Shown one piece after another: positions 2,324 through 7,974 of a DNA stretch of 7,974 nt. Location of the stretch: the IMG/VR virus record IMGVR_UViG_2648501437_000023; one strand, given 5' to 3'. This DNA comes from a virus (lineage: Duplodnaviria > Heunggongvirae > Uroviricota > Caudoviricetes). The notes below the pieces were generated by a model that worked only from the letters and a program-made list of their open reading frames with translations, was not told the DNA's origin and did not search any database. The position numbers were made by a program, and so were the translations under genes. Numbering within the stretch: the first letter of the stretch is position 1; the number at the start of each line of letters is the position of its first letter.

Positions 2324-2364
2324 GAATTTTTCGGATACGGGTTCAACTCCCGCCAGCTCCACCA
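2324..2364 (+). other. ssrA: 3'-terminal fragment of tmRNA (ssrA): T-arm, acceptor 3' strand and CCA; att-site remnant, not an intact tmRNA gene
   Basis: tcggatacgggttcaactcccgccagctccacca matches the enterobacterial tmRNA 3' end as I recall it (…TCGGACGCGGGTTCAACTCCCGCCAGCTCCACCA) with two substitutions. The ~320 nt upstream (2000-2320) contains no tmRNA 5' acceptor strand or tag-peptide reading frame, so only the 3' end is present. Confidence 0.7.
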
Positions 2365-2432: not shown

Positions 2433-2489
2433 ACGTCTATTGTCGTCCAGTGAGAATTGCTGAGAACTACGAGTTATGGCACCCTGAAT

Positions 2490-2526
2490 GGGACCCACTA
2501 AGAAGGGTCCAAAAACCGAGGGTCCC
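2490..2526. promoter_or_regulatory. GGGACCC … GGGTCC … GGGTCCC repeat set overlapping the integrase ribosome-binding site
   Basis: GGGACCC at 2490-2496 is the exact reverse complement of GGGTCCC at 2520-2526; a direct GGGTCC copy sits at 2505-2510, each followed by an A-run. The distal copy overlaps the GAGGG Shine-Dalgarno (2518-2522) of the integrase start at 2530. Confidence 0.25.
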
Positions 2527-2529
2527 AAA

Positions 2530-3759
2530 ATGGCAAAAATCGCTAAGAAGCTCACTGACACTGAAATCAAAAGCACCAAGCCAGCCGATAAAGAAATCAA
2601 CTTGTTTGACGGTGATGGTCTGATTCTACGAATCGCTCCTTTGGCGAAAGGAGGCAAGAAAAATTGGTATTTCAGGTATGCAGTACCAGTGAGCAAGAAA
2701 AGAACCAAAATGAGCCTTGGGACATATCCTCACCTTACCCTTGCAAGAGCCAGAGCCTTACGTGATGAATATCTCTCCTTTCTGGCAAATGGTGTTGATC
2801 CCCAAATCCATAACAACGATAAGGCGAAGGCATTAAAGAGTGCTACTGAGCACACTCTCCAAGCCGTAGCGCGGAAATGGTTAGATGAGAAGGTAAAGAC
2901 ATCAGGTATCTCACAAGACCATGCAGCAGACATCTGGCGCAGCTTAGAGAGAAATGTCTTTCCCGGTCTGGGTAATGTCCCTATCAATGAGATCCGACCT
3001 AAGCTCTTAAAACAACACCTTGATCCTATTGAGCAACGAGGCGTATTGGAAACTCTACGCCGTATCATTTCACGTCTGAATGAAATCTTCCGGTGGGCAG
3101 CTACTGAAGAACTTATTGAGTTCAACCCGGCTGACAACCTTGGTCAAAGATTCAGTAAACCAAAAAAGCAAAATATGCCTGCCCTTCCCCCAAGCGAATT
3201 GCCAAGGTTTATGGAATCTTTGACGAATGCGTCAATCCGGTTGGAAACACGTATGCTAATTGAATGGCAATTGTTGACATGGGTTCGTCCGGGTGAAGCC
3301 GTTCGCGCAAGGTGGTCTGATATTGATACAACCAACAGCATTTGGAACATTCCTGCTGATTTCATGAAAATGAAAAAGCTTCACAAAGTTCCTTTGAGTA
3401 AAGAAGCTTTGCGCATCCTTGAATTAATGAAATCAATAAGTGGGCATAGAGAATGGGTTTTCCCCAGCATAAAAGCGCCTCTTAATCATATGCATGAACA
3501 AACAGCCAACGCAGCTATCATCCGAATGGGGTTCGGAGGCGAGCTTGTAGCTCACGGTATGCGTTCTATTGCACGAACAGCGGCAGAGGAGTCTGGTAAA
3601 TTCAGAGCTGAAGTTCTTGAGGCAGCGCTTGCCCACTCGAAAAAAGATGAAATTATCGCAGCATACAATCGTGCAGAATATCTGATAGAGCGACAGAGTT
3701 TGATGCAATGGTGGAGTGATTACGTTCAAGCTCAAAGATCAAATGCTCTGGTAGCCTAA
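2530..3759 (+). CDS. int: P4-type (IntA/CP4-57-like) tyrosine integrase
   Basis: N-terminus MAKIAKKLTDTEIKSTKPADKEINLFDGDGLILRI matches the P4-family arm-binding domain. Catalytic motifs VRPGEAVRARWSDID, AHGMRSIART, LAHS, AYNRAEY. GAGGG Shine-Dalgarno 7 nt upstream of ATG 2530; the track's 2488 start adds 14 residues with no RBS, so 2530 is preferred. Lies about 165 bp downstream of the ssrA 3' fragment, the typical ssrA-int arrangement. Confidence 0.9.
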   Translation: MAKIAKKLTDTEIKSTKPADKEINLFDGDGLILRIAPLAKGGKKNWYFRYAVPVSKKRTKMSLGTYPHLTLARARALRDEYLSFLANGVDPQIHNNDKAKALKSATEHTLQAVARKWLDEKVKTSGISQDHAADIWRSLERNVFPGLGNVPINEIRPKLLKQHLDPIEQRGVLETLRRIISRLNEIFRWAATEELIEFNPADNLGQRFSKPKKQNMPALPPSELPRFMESLTNASIRLETRMLIEWQLLTWVRPGEAVRARWSDIDTTNSIWNIPADFMKMKKLHKVPLSKEALRILELMKSISGHREWVFPSIKAPLNHMHEQTANAAIIRMGFGGELVAHGMRSIARTAAEESGKFRAEVLEAALAHSKKDEIIAAYNRAEYLIERQSLMQWWSDYVQAQRSNALVA

Positions 3760-3797: not shown

Positions 3798-4214
3798 ATG
3801 GAAACCCTATTCAAAGTTTTTGAAAAATTTAGTTCCAGACCACTTTTTTTTATTTTTTTCGGACTCTCACTTTGTGAATTTTTTCAGAAACAATCTGTTC
3901 TGATGAATCCATCAGCAGATAACATCGCGAAATTATTCGCAGCCATGATATTAGTTGTTTTTTTTACTTGGGGATTTGAATGGCTAATCTTCAAGTTCAA
4001 TGTAAACCTTGAACCTCATGATCAAGGCGATATTGGACCAACAATTGGAACGGCTACTTTAGCTGTATACTTAGTTTATGCCTTTCACTTTCTCAGTGAA
4101 AATCCTGAAGCATTAAATTTAAAGTTATTAACTAACTCTGGCTTTATATACAGCACAACTCTATTATTATTCTCATTAGAATGCATGAAGCTTAGAAGAC
4201 TTAAACAAAAATAA
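3798..4214 (+). CDS. small integral membrane protein (138 aa, 3-4 predicted TM helices), function unknown
   Basis: Hydrophobic stretches PLFFIFFGLSLCEFF, IAKLFAAMILVVFFTWGF, IGTATLAVYLVYAFHFL, GFIYSTTLLLFSL. AT-rich like the downstream operon. Weak RBS, so start and expression are uncertain. Confidence 0.45.
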   Translation: METLFKVFEKFSSRPLFFIFFGLSLCEFFQKQSVLMNPSADNIAKLFAAMILVVFFTWGFEWLIFKFNVNLEPHDQGDIGPTIGTATLAVYLVYAFHFLSENPEALNLKLLTNSGFIYSTTLLLFSLECMKLRRLKQK

Positions 4215-4285
4215 ACAACATCATTGTGATGATAAATATAAAATAGGCATGGCGAAAAAAAATCACCACGCCTAAAATATAATAA

Positions 4286-6052
4286 TTATGGTAGCATCAT
4301 TGATACATAATCCACACCAATCCTTGAGCTATACTGAGACGCTATAGCCTGATATCTTTCTGCATAACCAGTTCTCAGTTGAGATTTAAGTTTGAGTCGG
4401 ACAGGAACATTTTGCACGTTGCCATCCATATTACTTAAAAACACGGCAGAAATAATATTTTTTTCTTCGCCATCAACTGTTGTTCCATGATTCAACACCA
4501 CCATATAATCAACAACAGGAAGCGTTTTATCCCCTTCGAAAATAGAGAGATATTTTCTTTGATTTTTATGCATTACATATATATATTTCGAATGTTCAGC
4601 AAATGGCAATGCTTTACTCTGACTGGCGTTAAAAAGCTCCAGAACTTTAATGAGCCTGTGCGGACTTAATCTTACATGGTGAGGGTCGTTACCCTGAGTA
4701 GGAACCAAATCACATGCCGCAGATACACATAAATACCATTTGTTCGACTCTGTATCAAAGAAAATAGTGCCAGTAGAAATATGACCATCTTCAAAATTCT
4801 TTGAAGACAAATTCATATTTAAAGCATGATACATTTCGTGATAAGTATCATTATTTGATGGCAGATCCATTTTTGAAGAGCAATATTGGAGCAATGCAGC
4901 AACTCCGCTGTTAGCGTATTCATTTGAATAGCTATCAAAAACACTTTTGATAAATTCATCCAGCGTATTATTATTTTTAAGTCTTTGATAAAGCTCTTCT
5001 GATAAATTACCAAATACAAAGTCAATATTTCTACATCTAATATCAGGCGAGTCTGATTTTAATATCTCATTTAACCACGCAGCTTGACCGTAATGATCGT
5101 TAGCCAAATGATTTACAAAAGATAAAGCCTCAGCTTCGATTGCATTCTGAATTTCAGATTTTATTAACTGATAATAAGATGGTTTCCATTCAATGAGAGA
5201 ATCATTGAGAGTTTGCCAAATCCTATCTCCATCGTTTTCATGATCATCTTGAACCTTATGAAATAGGGAGACAAAGATATTACCACATTGAATCCATTTT
5301 ACTCCGCTTTCATCACCCCGAATGACATTGCCAGATGTGTTGCTAGAAATAATTGCATTTCTAGACACAGCATATTCTGCAATCATTTTTGCAATGAAGT
5401 TTTTATCCTTTTGTTCCTCCAACACAGCATCATCATGTATTAATCTTTTAATTCTTCTACAAGGCTTACTGTCTTTAATATAGGCTATTGTTTCATCTCT
5501 TGTGAGAGCTTTATTACCATTATCATTTAAGTTCGGTAATACAACGTCTTCCCAATAACTTTGGACATCTTCATTATCGTAGTCAATGATCAAGCTGTTG
5601 ATATCCAGAGCACCTTTGAGAGTCGATGATATCTGCATCCAAACCGTTTCTAAATTCTCTCTAGTATATATTACAATCATATTTAAATGATCGGAGTCTT
5701 TCAAATCTTGTAATAGTTTAAGTGTTTTATCAGGTGCATTATTATCAAGATGATAATCTACAATAATAAGATCTGATTTTCTAATCCGATCCACATCGAA
5801 ATTAACAGAACCATTGTCAACATCACAAATCATATTTTTAGATTGAAAAAAGCTCTCAAGAGTAGCGGCTCGTTTAGATGAGTCAATTTTGTTGTAGTCT
5901 AAATCAACTTCGTTATTCAACGCCCTGATTGATTCAGAATACGTCAGAAAATCGTCATCAATCATGACAACGGAACGAATTGCATTTTCGCAGAAAGTTT
6001 TCTGGACAAGAGAATTATAATTTGCCACTGTCATATTAGAACTCCACTCCAT
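4286..6052 (-). CDS. response-regulator-like protein: N-terminal receiver (REC) domain plus ~450-aa C-terminal domain of unknown function (candidate effector)
   Basis: 588-aa ORF. REC hallmarks: VVMIDDD (acidic pair, D32-D34), DLIIVDYHLDNNAPDKTLKLL (phospho-acceptor Asp D99; codon checked at 5756-5758), NMIVIYT (conserved Thr), STLK (Lys). Rest of the protein shows no HTH or other recognisable output motif. Alternative start at 6034 (MTVANY…) has a GGAG Shine-Dalgarno 7 nt upstream and sits 1 nt after the kinase stop. Confidence 0.8.
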   Translation of the reverse strand: MEWSSNMTVANYNSLVQKTFCENAIRSVVMIDDDFLTYSESIRALNNEVDLDYNKIDSSKRAATLESFFQSKNMICDVDNGSVNFDVDRIRKSDLIIVDYHLDNNAPDKTLKLLQDLKDSDHLNMIVIYTRENLETVWMQISSTLKGALDINSLIIDYDNEDVQSYWEDVVLPNLNDNGNKALTRDETIAYIKDSKPCRRIKRLIHDDAVLEEQKDKNFIAKMIAEYAVSRNAIISSNTSGNVIRGDESGVKWIQCGNIFVSLFHKVQDDHENDGDRIWQTLNDSLIEWKPSYYQLIKSEIQNAIEAEALSFVNHLANDHYGQAAWLNEILKSDSPDIRCRNIDFVFGNLSEELYQRLKNNNTLDEFIKSVFDSYSNEYANSGVAALLQYCSSKMDLPSNNDTYHEMYHALNMNLSSKNFEDGHISTGTIFFDTESNKWYLCVSAACDLVPTQGNDPHHVRLSPHRLIKVLELFNASQSKALPFAEHSKYIYVMHKNQRKYLSIFEGDKTLPVVDYMVVLNHGTTVDGEEKNIISAVFLSNMDGNVQNVPVRLKLKSQLRTGYAERYQAIASQYSSRIGVDYVSMMLP

Positions 6053-7754
6053 TGAACTGGATCACAAAATTAGCGCCATCTTTTATTAAATAGTTATCGC
6101 CTTCATCAGGTTCTGAATACCATATTTTATGATGTGCAACAGCAAGGTTTTCTCGACATAGATACAGACCTACCCCATGTCCATTTGCTCTTTTGCTATA
6201 AAATAGTTCAAATAGTCGCGGGATATCATCGGTATCAATTGCCGGACCAGAATTTGCTATGATAACCAAAGAATTCACAAAACCAATCTTTATGAGCCTA
6301 TTATTTGACAGACTGACCCAATACATTGCATTGTTGATAATATTAGTAAAAACAGGATAGATCCTTGATGGTATATCTGTTATTGCGATTTGCTTAAACT
6401 CTTCACTAAATTCAATAGTTATTCGTTGCCGTTCGAAACGCTCCCCAAAGAACTTCAGGACATAATCCATGATATTTTTTCCAGTTATTCTCTGCCTGGA
6501 TTGATAACCTGATATTTTCAAAGGTGATAAGAAACGTATTTGTTGAGTAAGCGATCTGTGAGCATTTAACGCCAATGAAAAACCAGGGTGTTCTTTTACA
6601 GAAGTAGGAAGAGAGTTTAGTCCTCTGGTTACCATAGAATCCATTTCTTCAAGTTCATGAGATATTATCTCAACACTAATACCTAACTGTGCAAGCGCGT
6701 TTAAACTTTTAGCTTTTTCTTCAAAATATGAGCGTTCTTCTTCAGATAATGAGAATGCTGAATCTAAGTTTATACCTTCAAATAATCTATCGAGACCTTT
6801 TATTATTGATTGATATTTGAAAGTTAGGGTATCAACTGACTCAACATATAAACTATCGAGCAAATTAAACACATTTTCAATTTGTGAATCATTATCTATT
6901 GAATCAACAACTGATATAGTTTTAGCATAATAATCACTTCGATCATCCTTTATTTCATCGGCCCATTTTTTTAAAAGAGAATGTATCTTCTCCTCTATCG
7001 TGTTATTAAACTTAGTTAGTTTAGAATTAATAATACCTTGATTTTTTTCAAGGTGATTTTTCGCTGACAATGAAGGCTCAAGTTTATTTAATTCAGAATC
7101 AAGTTTATTAATTGCTAACTTCATTTGTAGAATATACGCAGAGAACTCATTAAATTTATCTCTGTAGTCTCTATATTTCTCTTCATACATTCCAAGTTTT
7201 GGAGGTTTGATAGGCGTTTTAATTTCACTGCGCAACGCATCTAAGTTTGTAAGATCACTGTCTATAATTTTAAGATAGTTTAAATCTAACGAACCATCAG
7301 TTTTATCAAGCTTAGTTTTCAGCCTTTTAACAGCCTCCAAGGAAGCATCAAGAACTGGTGTCTGATTCTTCAAAGCTTCTGAAAAACTTTTTTGTGTTGA
7401 TTTTCGAGCTTGTTGTTGAGCAGATTTTCTTAACTCTTTTTCACGCTTAACTTGTTCTAAAAGCTCTTTACGGTCATCAGAACGTGAACCAAAAAATCTA
7501 TCAGCAAGTTCAGTTAACAAATTAGATATAATAGTTTTCAGTTCTCTTGCAGCCTGGTTTCTTATGAATCCCTCTCTCCCCGACTTATCTTTCAGCTCTT
7601 TATTACTGGATTGAGTAATTCCAATATAACCAAAAATCCTTCTATTAGACCAATAATATCGCCCTGCATTCCATGAACGTCTTTCTTCTATCTGGAAGAA
7701 ATCATTATCTACTCGACCATAAGGTAATACTCTCAAGCTATCCCTAAAAATCAT
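6036..7754 (-). CDS. soluble histidine-kinase-like protein: ~350-aa coiled-coil-rich N-terminal region, HisKA-like H-box, HATPase_c domain
   Basis: 572-aa ORF. H-box GISVEIISHELEEM (His366; codon checked at 6657-6659). N-box PVFTNIINNAMYW, G1 IANSGPAID, F-box LFELFYSKR, G2 GHGVGL (codons checked at 6165-6182). No hydrophobic TM segments; N-terminal half is K/E/L-rich. Stop overlaps the start of the downstream REC gene. Confidence 0.8.
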   Translation of the reverse strand: MIFRDSLRVLPYGRVDNDFFQIEERRSWNAGRYYWSNRRIFGYIGITQSSNKELKDKSGREGFIRNQAARELKTIISNLLTELADRFFGSRSDDRKELLEQVKREKELRKSAQQQARKSTQKSFSEALKNQTPVLDASLEAVKRLKTKLDKTDGSLDLNYLKIIDSDLTNLDALRSEIKTPIKPPKLGMYEEKYRDYRDKFNEFSAYILQMKLAINKLDSELNKLEPSLSAKNHLEKNQGIINSKLTKFNNTIEEKIHSLLKKWADEIKDDRSDYYAKTISVVDSIDNDSQIENVFNLLDSLYVESVDTLTFKYQSIIKGLDRLFEGINLDSAFSLSEEERSYFEEKAKSLNALAQLGISVEIISHELEEMDSMVTRGLNSLPTSVKEHPGFSLALNAHRSLTQQIRFLSPLKISGYQSRQRITGKNIMDYVLKFFGERFERQRITIEFSEEFKQIAITDIPSRIYPVFTNIINNAMYWVSLSNNRLIKIGFVNSLVIIANSGPAIDTDDIPRLFELFYSKRANGHGVGLYLCRENLAVAHHKIWYSEPDEGDNYLIKDGANFVIQFNGVEF

Positions 7755-7974
7755 TAGTCCTGCATACTTTTTGGCCTTAAGATCAAAGTGGGAATGTTCA
7801 CGTTCAGTATGTGATGTATTTTGTGAAAGGAATTCAAACGTTCCTATCTGAAGCTCAAATGGGCCGACCCCTGCGTGATCCTACCCACGTAATATGGACA
7901 CAGGCCTAAGCGAGGTTCTTGTTTTCAAATTGTTCCGGACTGAGGCCGCCACACCAACTGTGCCGCCGCCACCG

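Follow-up and report, generated by a model that had tools for sequence, protein, structure and literature searches.

A conserved output module fused to a Response_reg_2 receiver is a candidate phospho-gated effector of a methyltransferase-linked cassette

The C-terminal part of a response-regulator-like protein encoded in the window (the whole stretch of 7,974 nucleotides that we analysed, taken from a viral IMG/VR record) is a genuine conserved domain and not a chance sequence. We propose that this domain, aa 293-588 of the protein, is the output module of the HEF_HK/Response_reg_2 gene pair and that it works as the phospho-gated effector of a cassette similar to restriction-modification (R-M) systems, with an action that is likely toxic or directed at nucleic acids. 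We put the probability of this reading at roughly 0.5. Around this pair a mobile cassette of three to four genes is built, namely a C5 methyltransferase, a paraMORC kinase, the receiver-output gene and, in around half of the cases, Vsr. The copy in the window is most likely an inert relic, that is, an orphaned effector.

Results and discussion

The receiver domain and the extent of the output module

The response-regulator-like gene lies at 4286-6052 on the minus strand. Its open reading frame encodes 588 aa and is supported by the list of reading frames, by RefSeq at identical loci and by 108 full-length homologues. RefSeq starts the identical gene at M7 (position 6034), which gives a protein of 582 aa (WP_000214990.1) labelled as a 'response regulator receiver domain' protein. 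Directly 3' of the stop codon there is a terminator-like hairpin with a 12-bp stem and a T run (4244-4274, minus strand); the consensus scan that located it returned six sites in the region against 1.5 expected, and it is a pattern match only.

Pfam PF19192 (Response_reg_2) is the sole assigned match on the 588-aa protein. It covers aa 25-181 with an E-value of 3.6e-31 and 109.1 bits (cut-off 27). Nevertheless, when Pfam, the invariant columns and the secondary structure of an AlphaFold2 model are taken together, the extended receiver spans aa 12-290 (5183-6019, minus strand). The full-length model was built from a 38-sequence alignment and reached a pLDDT of 85 and a pTM of 0.78. Residues D32, D33, D99, T130 and K266 form the canonical receiver quintet and are invariant in 38 homologues, D32/D33 being the acid pocket and D99 (codon 5756-5758) the phospho-acceptor. 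According to the strands of the model, the two adjacent aspartates end beta1, D99 ends beta3, T130 ends beta4 and K266 comes after beta5. Strands beta1 to beta4 are modelled within aa 27-130, followed by a helical insert at aa 134-232 (5357-5653) between alpha4 and beta5, by beta5 itself at aa 259-265 and by alpha5 at aa 274-289. Judged from the sequence, the phospho-acceptor pocket is intact, and the kinase would be expected to pass its phosphoryl group to D99.

The original prediction described a receiver and, after it, a long stretch without assignment, and this is what we found, as nothing is assigned beyond the receiver. The size given for that region, about 450 aa, has to be reduced. The range 4286-5602 (aa 151-588) still holds around 140 receiver residues, and since the insert, beta5 with K266 and alpha5 belong to the receiver, the unassigned module comprises aa 293-588, around 295 aa, encoded at 4289-5176. 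Neither Pfam, NCBIfam nor PADLOC matched any part of the protein beyond the receiver. A sequence search of the PDB with the C-terminal part, both as a single sequence and as a 22-sequence profile, gave noise and no credible match, and PHROGs returned only unannotated families consisting of the same protein as the query. The region had also been described as free of HTH, GGDEF/EAL and CheB outputs and of nuclease, SIR2, TIR and PNP signatures, and none of these is detectable by Pfam, NCBIfam, PADLOC or PDB sequence searches. The same searches revealed no catalytic motif of known nuclease, RNase or NADase families in the module. Regarding type II endonucleases, no core of the PD-(D/E)xK, HNH, GIY-YIG or PLD kind is recognisable in it; a PD-(D/E)xK site around A446-C447-D448 was considered and discarded, as position 448 varies between D, N and E and there is no match to the RE fold.

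Despite this lack of assigned families, a profile of the C-terminal part found 610 cluster representatives (at 50% identity) among 1.84 billion proteins, ranging from Proteobacteria to Acidobacteria. We also modelled aa 290-588 separately with AlphaFold2 (pLDDT 84). The number of representatives, together with the good scores of the models (pLDDT 84-85, pTM 0.78), is the reason why we consider the module a genuine domain. Among the matches listed, nearly all the proteins are around 560-680 aa long and the module begins near residue 280-330; therefore, it is practically always fused to a receiver of the Response_reg_2 type. The fusion is obligatory from the side of the receiver as well: in the 40 loci that we scored with HMMs, all the receiver genes also match the C-terminal profile, and a search with an alignment of the receiver only, looking for receivers paired with other outputs, found only 14 fragments of the same family. 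As every HMM-scored receiver gene carries the same C-terminal module, the family offers no domain swap from which the output could be read.

The module consists of two subdomains and a tail. Subdomain 1, aa 293-416 (4805-5176, minus strand), is a seven-helix domain that opens with a conserved SEIQNxxE helix and closes with a HALN motif, whose N412 is invariant. Subdomain 2, aa 417-571 (4340-4804, minus strand), is a beta-barrel followed by a C-terminal helix. It shows a TTG428 turn, a helix start with QLR560..YAxR566 and a loop, C442-x4-C447-D448 (4700-4729), which has a low pLDDT and contains the invariant C447. The C-terminal tail, aa 572-588 (4289-4339, minus strand), is conserved in the alignments and is also kept in an E. 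coli paralogue that is only 23% identical; its motif, S-R577-I-G579-V-D581-F/Y (4310-4324), includes the invariant R577. Altogether, P291, N412, G428, C447 and R577 are invariant among 104 representatives with identities down to 20%, and C442, A485, L559, R566, G579 and D581 are conserved in at least 90% of them. The motifs of the module can be written as HALN, TTG, C-x4-C-D-x-V-P-x-Q, QLR-x2-YA-x-R and SRIGVDF. In the full-length model, C447-L450 (CDLV) is the sole internal stretch with a pLDDT below 50, and thus it is probably a mobile, functional loop.

Comparison with the MazF, CcdB and Kid toxins

Foldseek on the predicted structure, which had been proposed as a check of the original prediction, gave no match to PDB or viral structures at E <= 0.001. 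The helical domain (aa 293-416) produced generic structural matches only. For the beta domain the only coherent structural signal came from bona fide toxins, MazF, CcdB and Kid, and this signal is at the level of the fold only: the module is modelled with an SH3-like barrel and a C-terminal helix, as in the MazF/PemK fold.

Such a fold would suit a barrel that is a highly diverged MazF/PemK endoribonuclease or a CcdB-type gyrase poison, where the receiver has taken the place of the antitoxin. The system would then cause abortive infection by RNA cleavage or gyrase poisoning, rather than DNA restriction. We find this quite improbable for several reasons. A Pfam scan of 22 members of the family at E <= 10 gave no family that was matched consistently, and neither PemK_toxin nor CcdB was matched by any member. 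The hhalign comparison of the module with a small MazF/PemK (PF02452) alignment returned a probability of 0.2%, and therefore we do not claim homology to MazF. The catalytic Arg of MazF lies in the beta1-beta2 loop, with a Thr/Ser at the end of beta3. In the module the beta1-beta2 loop has 5 residues (TESNK) and no conserved Arg, the equivalence of residues being approximate as it does not come from a structural alignment; from column 428 to column 442 none is conserved except C442. Conversely, the conserved C447, N412 and R577 of the module have no counterpart in MazF or CcdB. Furthermore, the barrel is embedded in a multidomain protein of 588 aa and carries an extra long hairpin (aa 533-559), no antitoxin gene (MazE, PemI or CcdA) was found beside the receiver gene in the window or in more than 40 loci, and a context of methylase and Vsr points to DNA and not to RNA. 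Thus, in contrast to MazF/PemK/Kid and CcdB, the module lacks sequence or profile similarity to these toxins, the catalytic Arg/Thr motif and an antitoxin gene, and the protein is a member of neither the MazF/PemK nor the CcdB family.

The cassette in other genomes

The gene pair has already been described as the HEF_HK/Response_reg_2 two-component-like pair (Bellieny-Rabelo, Pretorius & Moleleki 2021; Pfam PF19191 and PF19192; PMC8011034). The comparative genomics of that study reported a linkage of 91.6% between the two genes and an enrichment of type II R-M and Vsr genes nearby, and it defined the receiver and DHp domains only, leaving the C-terminal ~295 aa of the receiver protein undescribed (PMC8011034). 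It is this output domain that is newly delimited, modelled and compared here. The protein in the window is a member of the pair: its upstream neighbour carries HEF_HK and HATPase_c, and the linkage of the family to C5 methylase and Vsr that we observed agrees with the earlier description.

We fetched 37 species-level loci and scored their reading frames with our own HMMs; 33 of them have at least 4.3 kb upstream. A full-length kinase of around 970-1010 aa is located directly upstream of the receiver gene in 32 of these 33 loci. The C5 methylase is present in 31, either upstream of the kinase or convergent at the 3' side of the receiver gene, and Vsr in 15. Several loci are tight operons in the order methylase, kinase, receiver and Vsr with overlapping stops and starts, for instance L003. 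The combination of a C5 DNA methylase (PF00145), the kinase and the receiver protein was found in loci from Pantoea, an acidobacterium, Acinetobacter and a metagenome. The kinase of the cassette, 970-995 aa long in these loci, has the architecture HATPase_c_3 - HEF_HK - HATPase_c, which means that a paraMORC/GHKL N-terminal half precedes the kinase core. No further nuclease common to the cassettes is conserved in the loci examined, and many minimal cassettes hold the methylase and no other R-M gene.

The output module could also be read as a non-catalytic regulatory output, in which the helical domain and the SH3-like barrel bind DNA or a partner and the relay controls the linked methylase or neighbouring R-M genes, as an epigenetic or R-M control circuit. 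This seems unlikely to us. In minimal cassettes with the methylase only there is no R gene for the relay to control, and the Pfam scan of the 22 members at E <= 10 detected neither an HTH nor any other DNA-binding family. The structural matches that are coherent, as described above, are to toxins. An invariant Cys (C447) that the models place in a flexible loop, accompanied by an invariant Asn and an invariant Arg in other parts of the module, is more suggestive of an active site. Finally, loss of the methylase coincides with truncation of the kinase.

Regarding this last point, in a Gemmatimonadetes MAG (L029) a DDE_5 transposase lies directly upstream of an 842-aa kinase without the GHKL N-terminus, the methylase is absent and the receiver gene is intact. 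The same pattern is found in the window, as described in the next section. Loss of the methylase and of the kinase N-terminus, with the receiver gene left whole, fits an addiction-like dependence on methylation in which the unphosphorylated effector would be harmless. The co-loss argument comprises two independent cases, the E. coli relic produced by IS3 and the Gemmatimonadetes genome; they are few, and one of them is a MAG. A possible counter-example to the pattern is L033, whose methylase is divided between two reading frames, with intact kinase and receiver genes beside it.

An intact but distant version of the cassette exists in 212 complete E. coli genomes. Megablast with the cassettes of Citrobacter and Pantoea as queries yielded nothing in E. 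coli genomes, and the intact paralogue was detected afterwards by a more distant search mode. Its methylase has 398 aa, its kinase 989 aa and its receiver protein 607 aa, and the latter keeps the motifs at 23% identity to the protein of the window. In E. coli O55:H7 DEC5E the intact cassette (L090, positions 6776-12851) adjoins a phosphorothioate-dependent restriction endonuclease and ArdC.

The locus in the window

The copy in the window is not a complete cassette, as it has neither a methylase nor a full-length kinase. A 5'-truncated gene for the paraMORC-histidine kinase occupies 6036-7875 on the minus strand, as established by Pfam, translation, BLASTP and Pfam on full-length homologues. 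The called reading frame is 6036-7754 (572 aa), overlaps the receiver reading frame and contains the HEF_HK DHp domain (PF19191, 26.3 bits against a cut-off of 24.1) and HATPase_c. However, the frame stays open and homologous until it meets IS3 at 7875, a point equivalent to aa 378 of a 990-aa Pantoea protein. By BLASTP, the remnant is 82% identical to aa 378-989 of this protein, which comes from the Pantoea dispersa locus L002 (intact cassette at 5841-11746). Since the homology begins only at aa 378, the GHKL/paraMORC half (HATPase_c_3) is missing and around 377 first codons are gone. The end of the IS3 element, with its terminal repeat, was recognised in the sequence and by RefSeq annotation at 7876-7974 and truncates the kinase gene; at three loci (L001, L009 and L010) the adjacent RefSeq feature is 'IS3-like element IS3 family transposase'. 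No C5 methylase gene was found in the window or in the identical E. coli loci, including the part upstream of the kinase remnant, which is the place of the methylase in most intact cassettes. Thus, compared with the described HEF_HK/Response_reg_2 pair, the copy in the window differs by the absence of the methylase and of the HATPase_c_3 half of the kinase.

The relic sits on an ssrA-linked island. Its P4-type integrase, given here as context only, is encoded at 2488-3759 on the plus strand (Pfam Arm-DNA-bind_3, Phage_int_M and Phage_integrase; located by ssrA in L009), and the order on the island is the P4-type integrase, a 138-aa membrane protein, the receiver gene, the truncated kinase and IS3. 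The membrane protein (3798-4214) was considered as a component of the system and discarded, as it does not occur outside the E. coli island. The IMG/VR matches are E. coli prophage-border predictions and do not show that the system is carried by phages.

As the sensor half of the kinase has been cut by IS3 and the methylase is absent, phospho-activation probably no longer operates normally in this copy. Whatever the family does elsewhere, the gene in this genome is therefore probably a non-functional leftover without a current role. Of 5,426 complete E. coli genomes, 560 share this relic, fixed at more than 99% identity, and at least one strain (GPEC1040) shows a frameshift in the receiver gene and a stop codon within the kinase. 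Against decay, the great majority of copies keep the reading frame of the receiver gene intact, among them one cluster of homologues with 1,966 sequences of identical length, and the kinase remnant retains the DHp histidine and the ATP-binding domain, so that residual signalling is possible. A leftover in the window is compatible with the phospho-gated effector that we propose for the family and is not opposed to it.

Relation to known systems

The locus resembles several known systems in its logic. Detocs, as Rousset et al. reportedly described it in 2023, consists of the kinase DtcA, the buffer receiver DtcB and the receiver-effector DtcC. Both systems would lead from a cytoplasmic histidine kinase to a receiver fused to an effector that does not bind DNA. 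However, the cassette studied here lacks a gene for a stand-alone buffer receiver and has no PNP or transmembrane effector; furthermore, its kinase uses a paraMORC GHKL ATPase as sensor and it adds a DNA methylase and Vsr. With PADLOC 2.0.0, which may hold no Detocs models, the receiver and the kinase matched only unrelated models below threshold (E-values of 0.0026-0.072).

A second group to compare with are the MORC/paraMORC R-M cassettes, in which the partner of the ATPase is a helicase, an endonuclease (RE-fold or HNH) or a TIR protein (Iyer, Abhiman & Aravind 2008; PMC2292703). In common with them, our cassette has a GHKL-S5 ATPase with cytosine methylases and Vsr on mobile islands, where a nuclease partner would be expected. 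Nevertheless, our cassette has the ATPase joined to the core of a histidine kinase and, as the partner, a receiver whose output is unclassified. The locus is a member of neither Detocs nor the MORC/paraMORC R-M cassettes. Type II R-M systems with a C5 methylase and Vsr show the same gene order on a mobile island, with the R position between M and V. In our case, however, the R position is held by two large proteins that form a putative phosphorelay, and no endonuclease motif was found.

Proposed mechanism

Taking the context and the fold into account, the following mechanism can be proposed. The methylase would mark the DNA of the host itself, and the MutL/MORC-like ATPase half of the kinase would monitor DNA and, when triggered, drive autophosphorylation of the HEF_HK histidine. 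D99 of the receiver would then accept the phosphoryl group from the kinase. Unphosphorylated, the receiver would keep the output module silent, and phosphorylation would release it. The released helical domain and the MazF/CcdB-shaped barrel with its invariant Cys, Asn and Arg would be a toxic or nucleic-acid-targeting effector, so that the output module would take the role of 'R' in a system of the R-M kind.

A more specific version is that the cassette is a new type of R-M or defence system, in which a phosphorelay stands between the recognition of self and non-self and the attack: the ATPase-kinase would sense DNA without the cognate 5-methylcytosine mark, and the relay would arm a Cys-dependent effector of a new type, shaped like MazF/CcdB and directed at nucleic acids. 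We offer this version tentatively.

In this light, the original prediction that the region after the receiver is a phospho-activated effector is plausible, and both the fold, which is toxin-like, and the R-M-like context strengthen it modestly. The intact phospho-acceptor pocket is in its favour, and the family context, a mobile cassette of C5 methylase, paraMORC kinase, receiver protein and often Vsr, resembles R-M or defence systems. The reservations are that the resemblance to toxins is at the fold level and that the system in the window is a relic.

Conclusions

The cassette is widespread, yet neither its kinase nor its receiver protein has a model in the PADLOC library that we scanned (2023), and the literature that we searched contains no defence phenotype, biochemical result or experimental study for any member. 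An intact E. coli cassette, for example that of O55:H7 DEC5E, is a tractable entry for experiments, and the gene in the window, an intact orphan in a decayed island, is a natural control of an effector without its activator. Should the module prove to be a toxin or nuclease gated by phosphorylation, this would be the first R-M-like system in which a His-Asp phosphorelay licenses the attack, and with its effector the MazF/CcdB fold would gain a new enzymatic use.

Truncated cassettes and split genes

The paraMORC-histidine-kinase gene that accompanies the receiver gene in the window is broken by the end of an IS3 element (7876-7974), with the junction at 7875. The kinase frame stays open as far as the IS3 terminal repeat, and the homology of its product to the full-length Pantoea protein starts at Pantoea residue 378. 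A second case, independent of the window, of a kinase that lacks its N-terminus and adjoins a transposase gene was found in a Gemmatimonadetes MAG (L029, 5905-10026). In this cassette remnant a DDE_5 transposase gene lies immediately upstream of a shortened kinase gene, whose 842-aa product is without the GHKL N-terminus, and the receiver gene is intact. No methylase gene was found in this locus.

Two other cassettes had a split gene next to intact partners. In L025 the receiver gene (7862-9727) was split into ORFs of 339 and 264 aa, while the methylase and kinase genes beside it were intact. In L033 it was the methylase gene that was split into two ORFs (5885-7078), next to intact kinase and receiver genes. 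These splits could be further signs of decay, and each of them may represent either a real pseudogene or an assembly error.

The island around the window gene

Regarding the surroundings of the receiver gene, the final 36 nt of ssrA (tmRNA) were located at window positions 2329-2364, upstream of a P4-type integrase gene (2488-3759), and there is no complete tmRNA within the window. This piece probably represents a copy of the attachment site, left behind by the prophage with the integrase gene at 396-1574. Between the P4-type integrase gene and the receiver gene, a predicted membrane protein of 138 aa is encoded on the plus strand (3798-4214). It matches phrog_6556, a family of unknown function, and is labelled DUF4760 in some RefSeq records; it was found in the E. 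coli island only, the other cassettes all lacking it. A strong terminator-like hairpin on the minus strand (4244-4274), with a 12-bp stem and a T run, is placed 12 nt past the receiver gene stop codon and separates this gene from the convergent 138-aa ORF.

Occurrences in viral contigs and in a MAG

The receiver gene is present in many IMG/VR contigs labelled as viral (L048-L087), and two PHROG families without a known function, phrog_7659 and phrog_30547, also include it. Each of these occurrences stems from a predicted E. coli prophage with borders that extend into the adjoining ssrA island, and therefore these occurrences are no proof that phages carry the gene. The 5.6-kb contig titled 'Bacteroidales bacterium' MAG (L011) matched the E. 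coli relic, the truncated copy in the ssrA-linked island, at 100% identity, integrase included. Its most likely origin is contaminating E. coli DNA that was placed in the bin of a Bacteroidales MAG.

Other cassettes

An intact, distant cassette was found in E. coli O55:H7 DEC5E (NZ_CP038383.1; L090, 6776-12851), encoding a methylase of 398 aa, a kinase of 989 aa and a receiver protein of 607 aa, the last being 23% identical to the window protein. Its neighbours in DEC5E include a 'phosphorothioated DNA-binding restriction endonuclease', ArdC, Fic and IS elements, and cassettes of this type occur in 212 of the 5,426 complete E. coli genomes. In Roseomonas indoligenes (L023), an 841-aa ORF (4479-7004) with no match in Pfam lies between the C5 methylase and kinase genes, and this could be an additional, lineage-specific component of the cassette.
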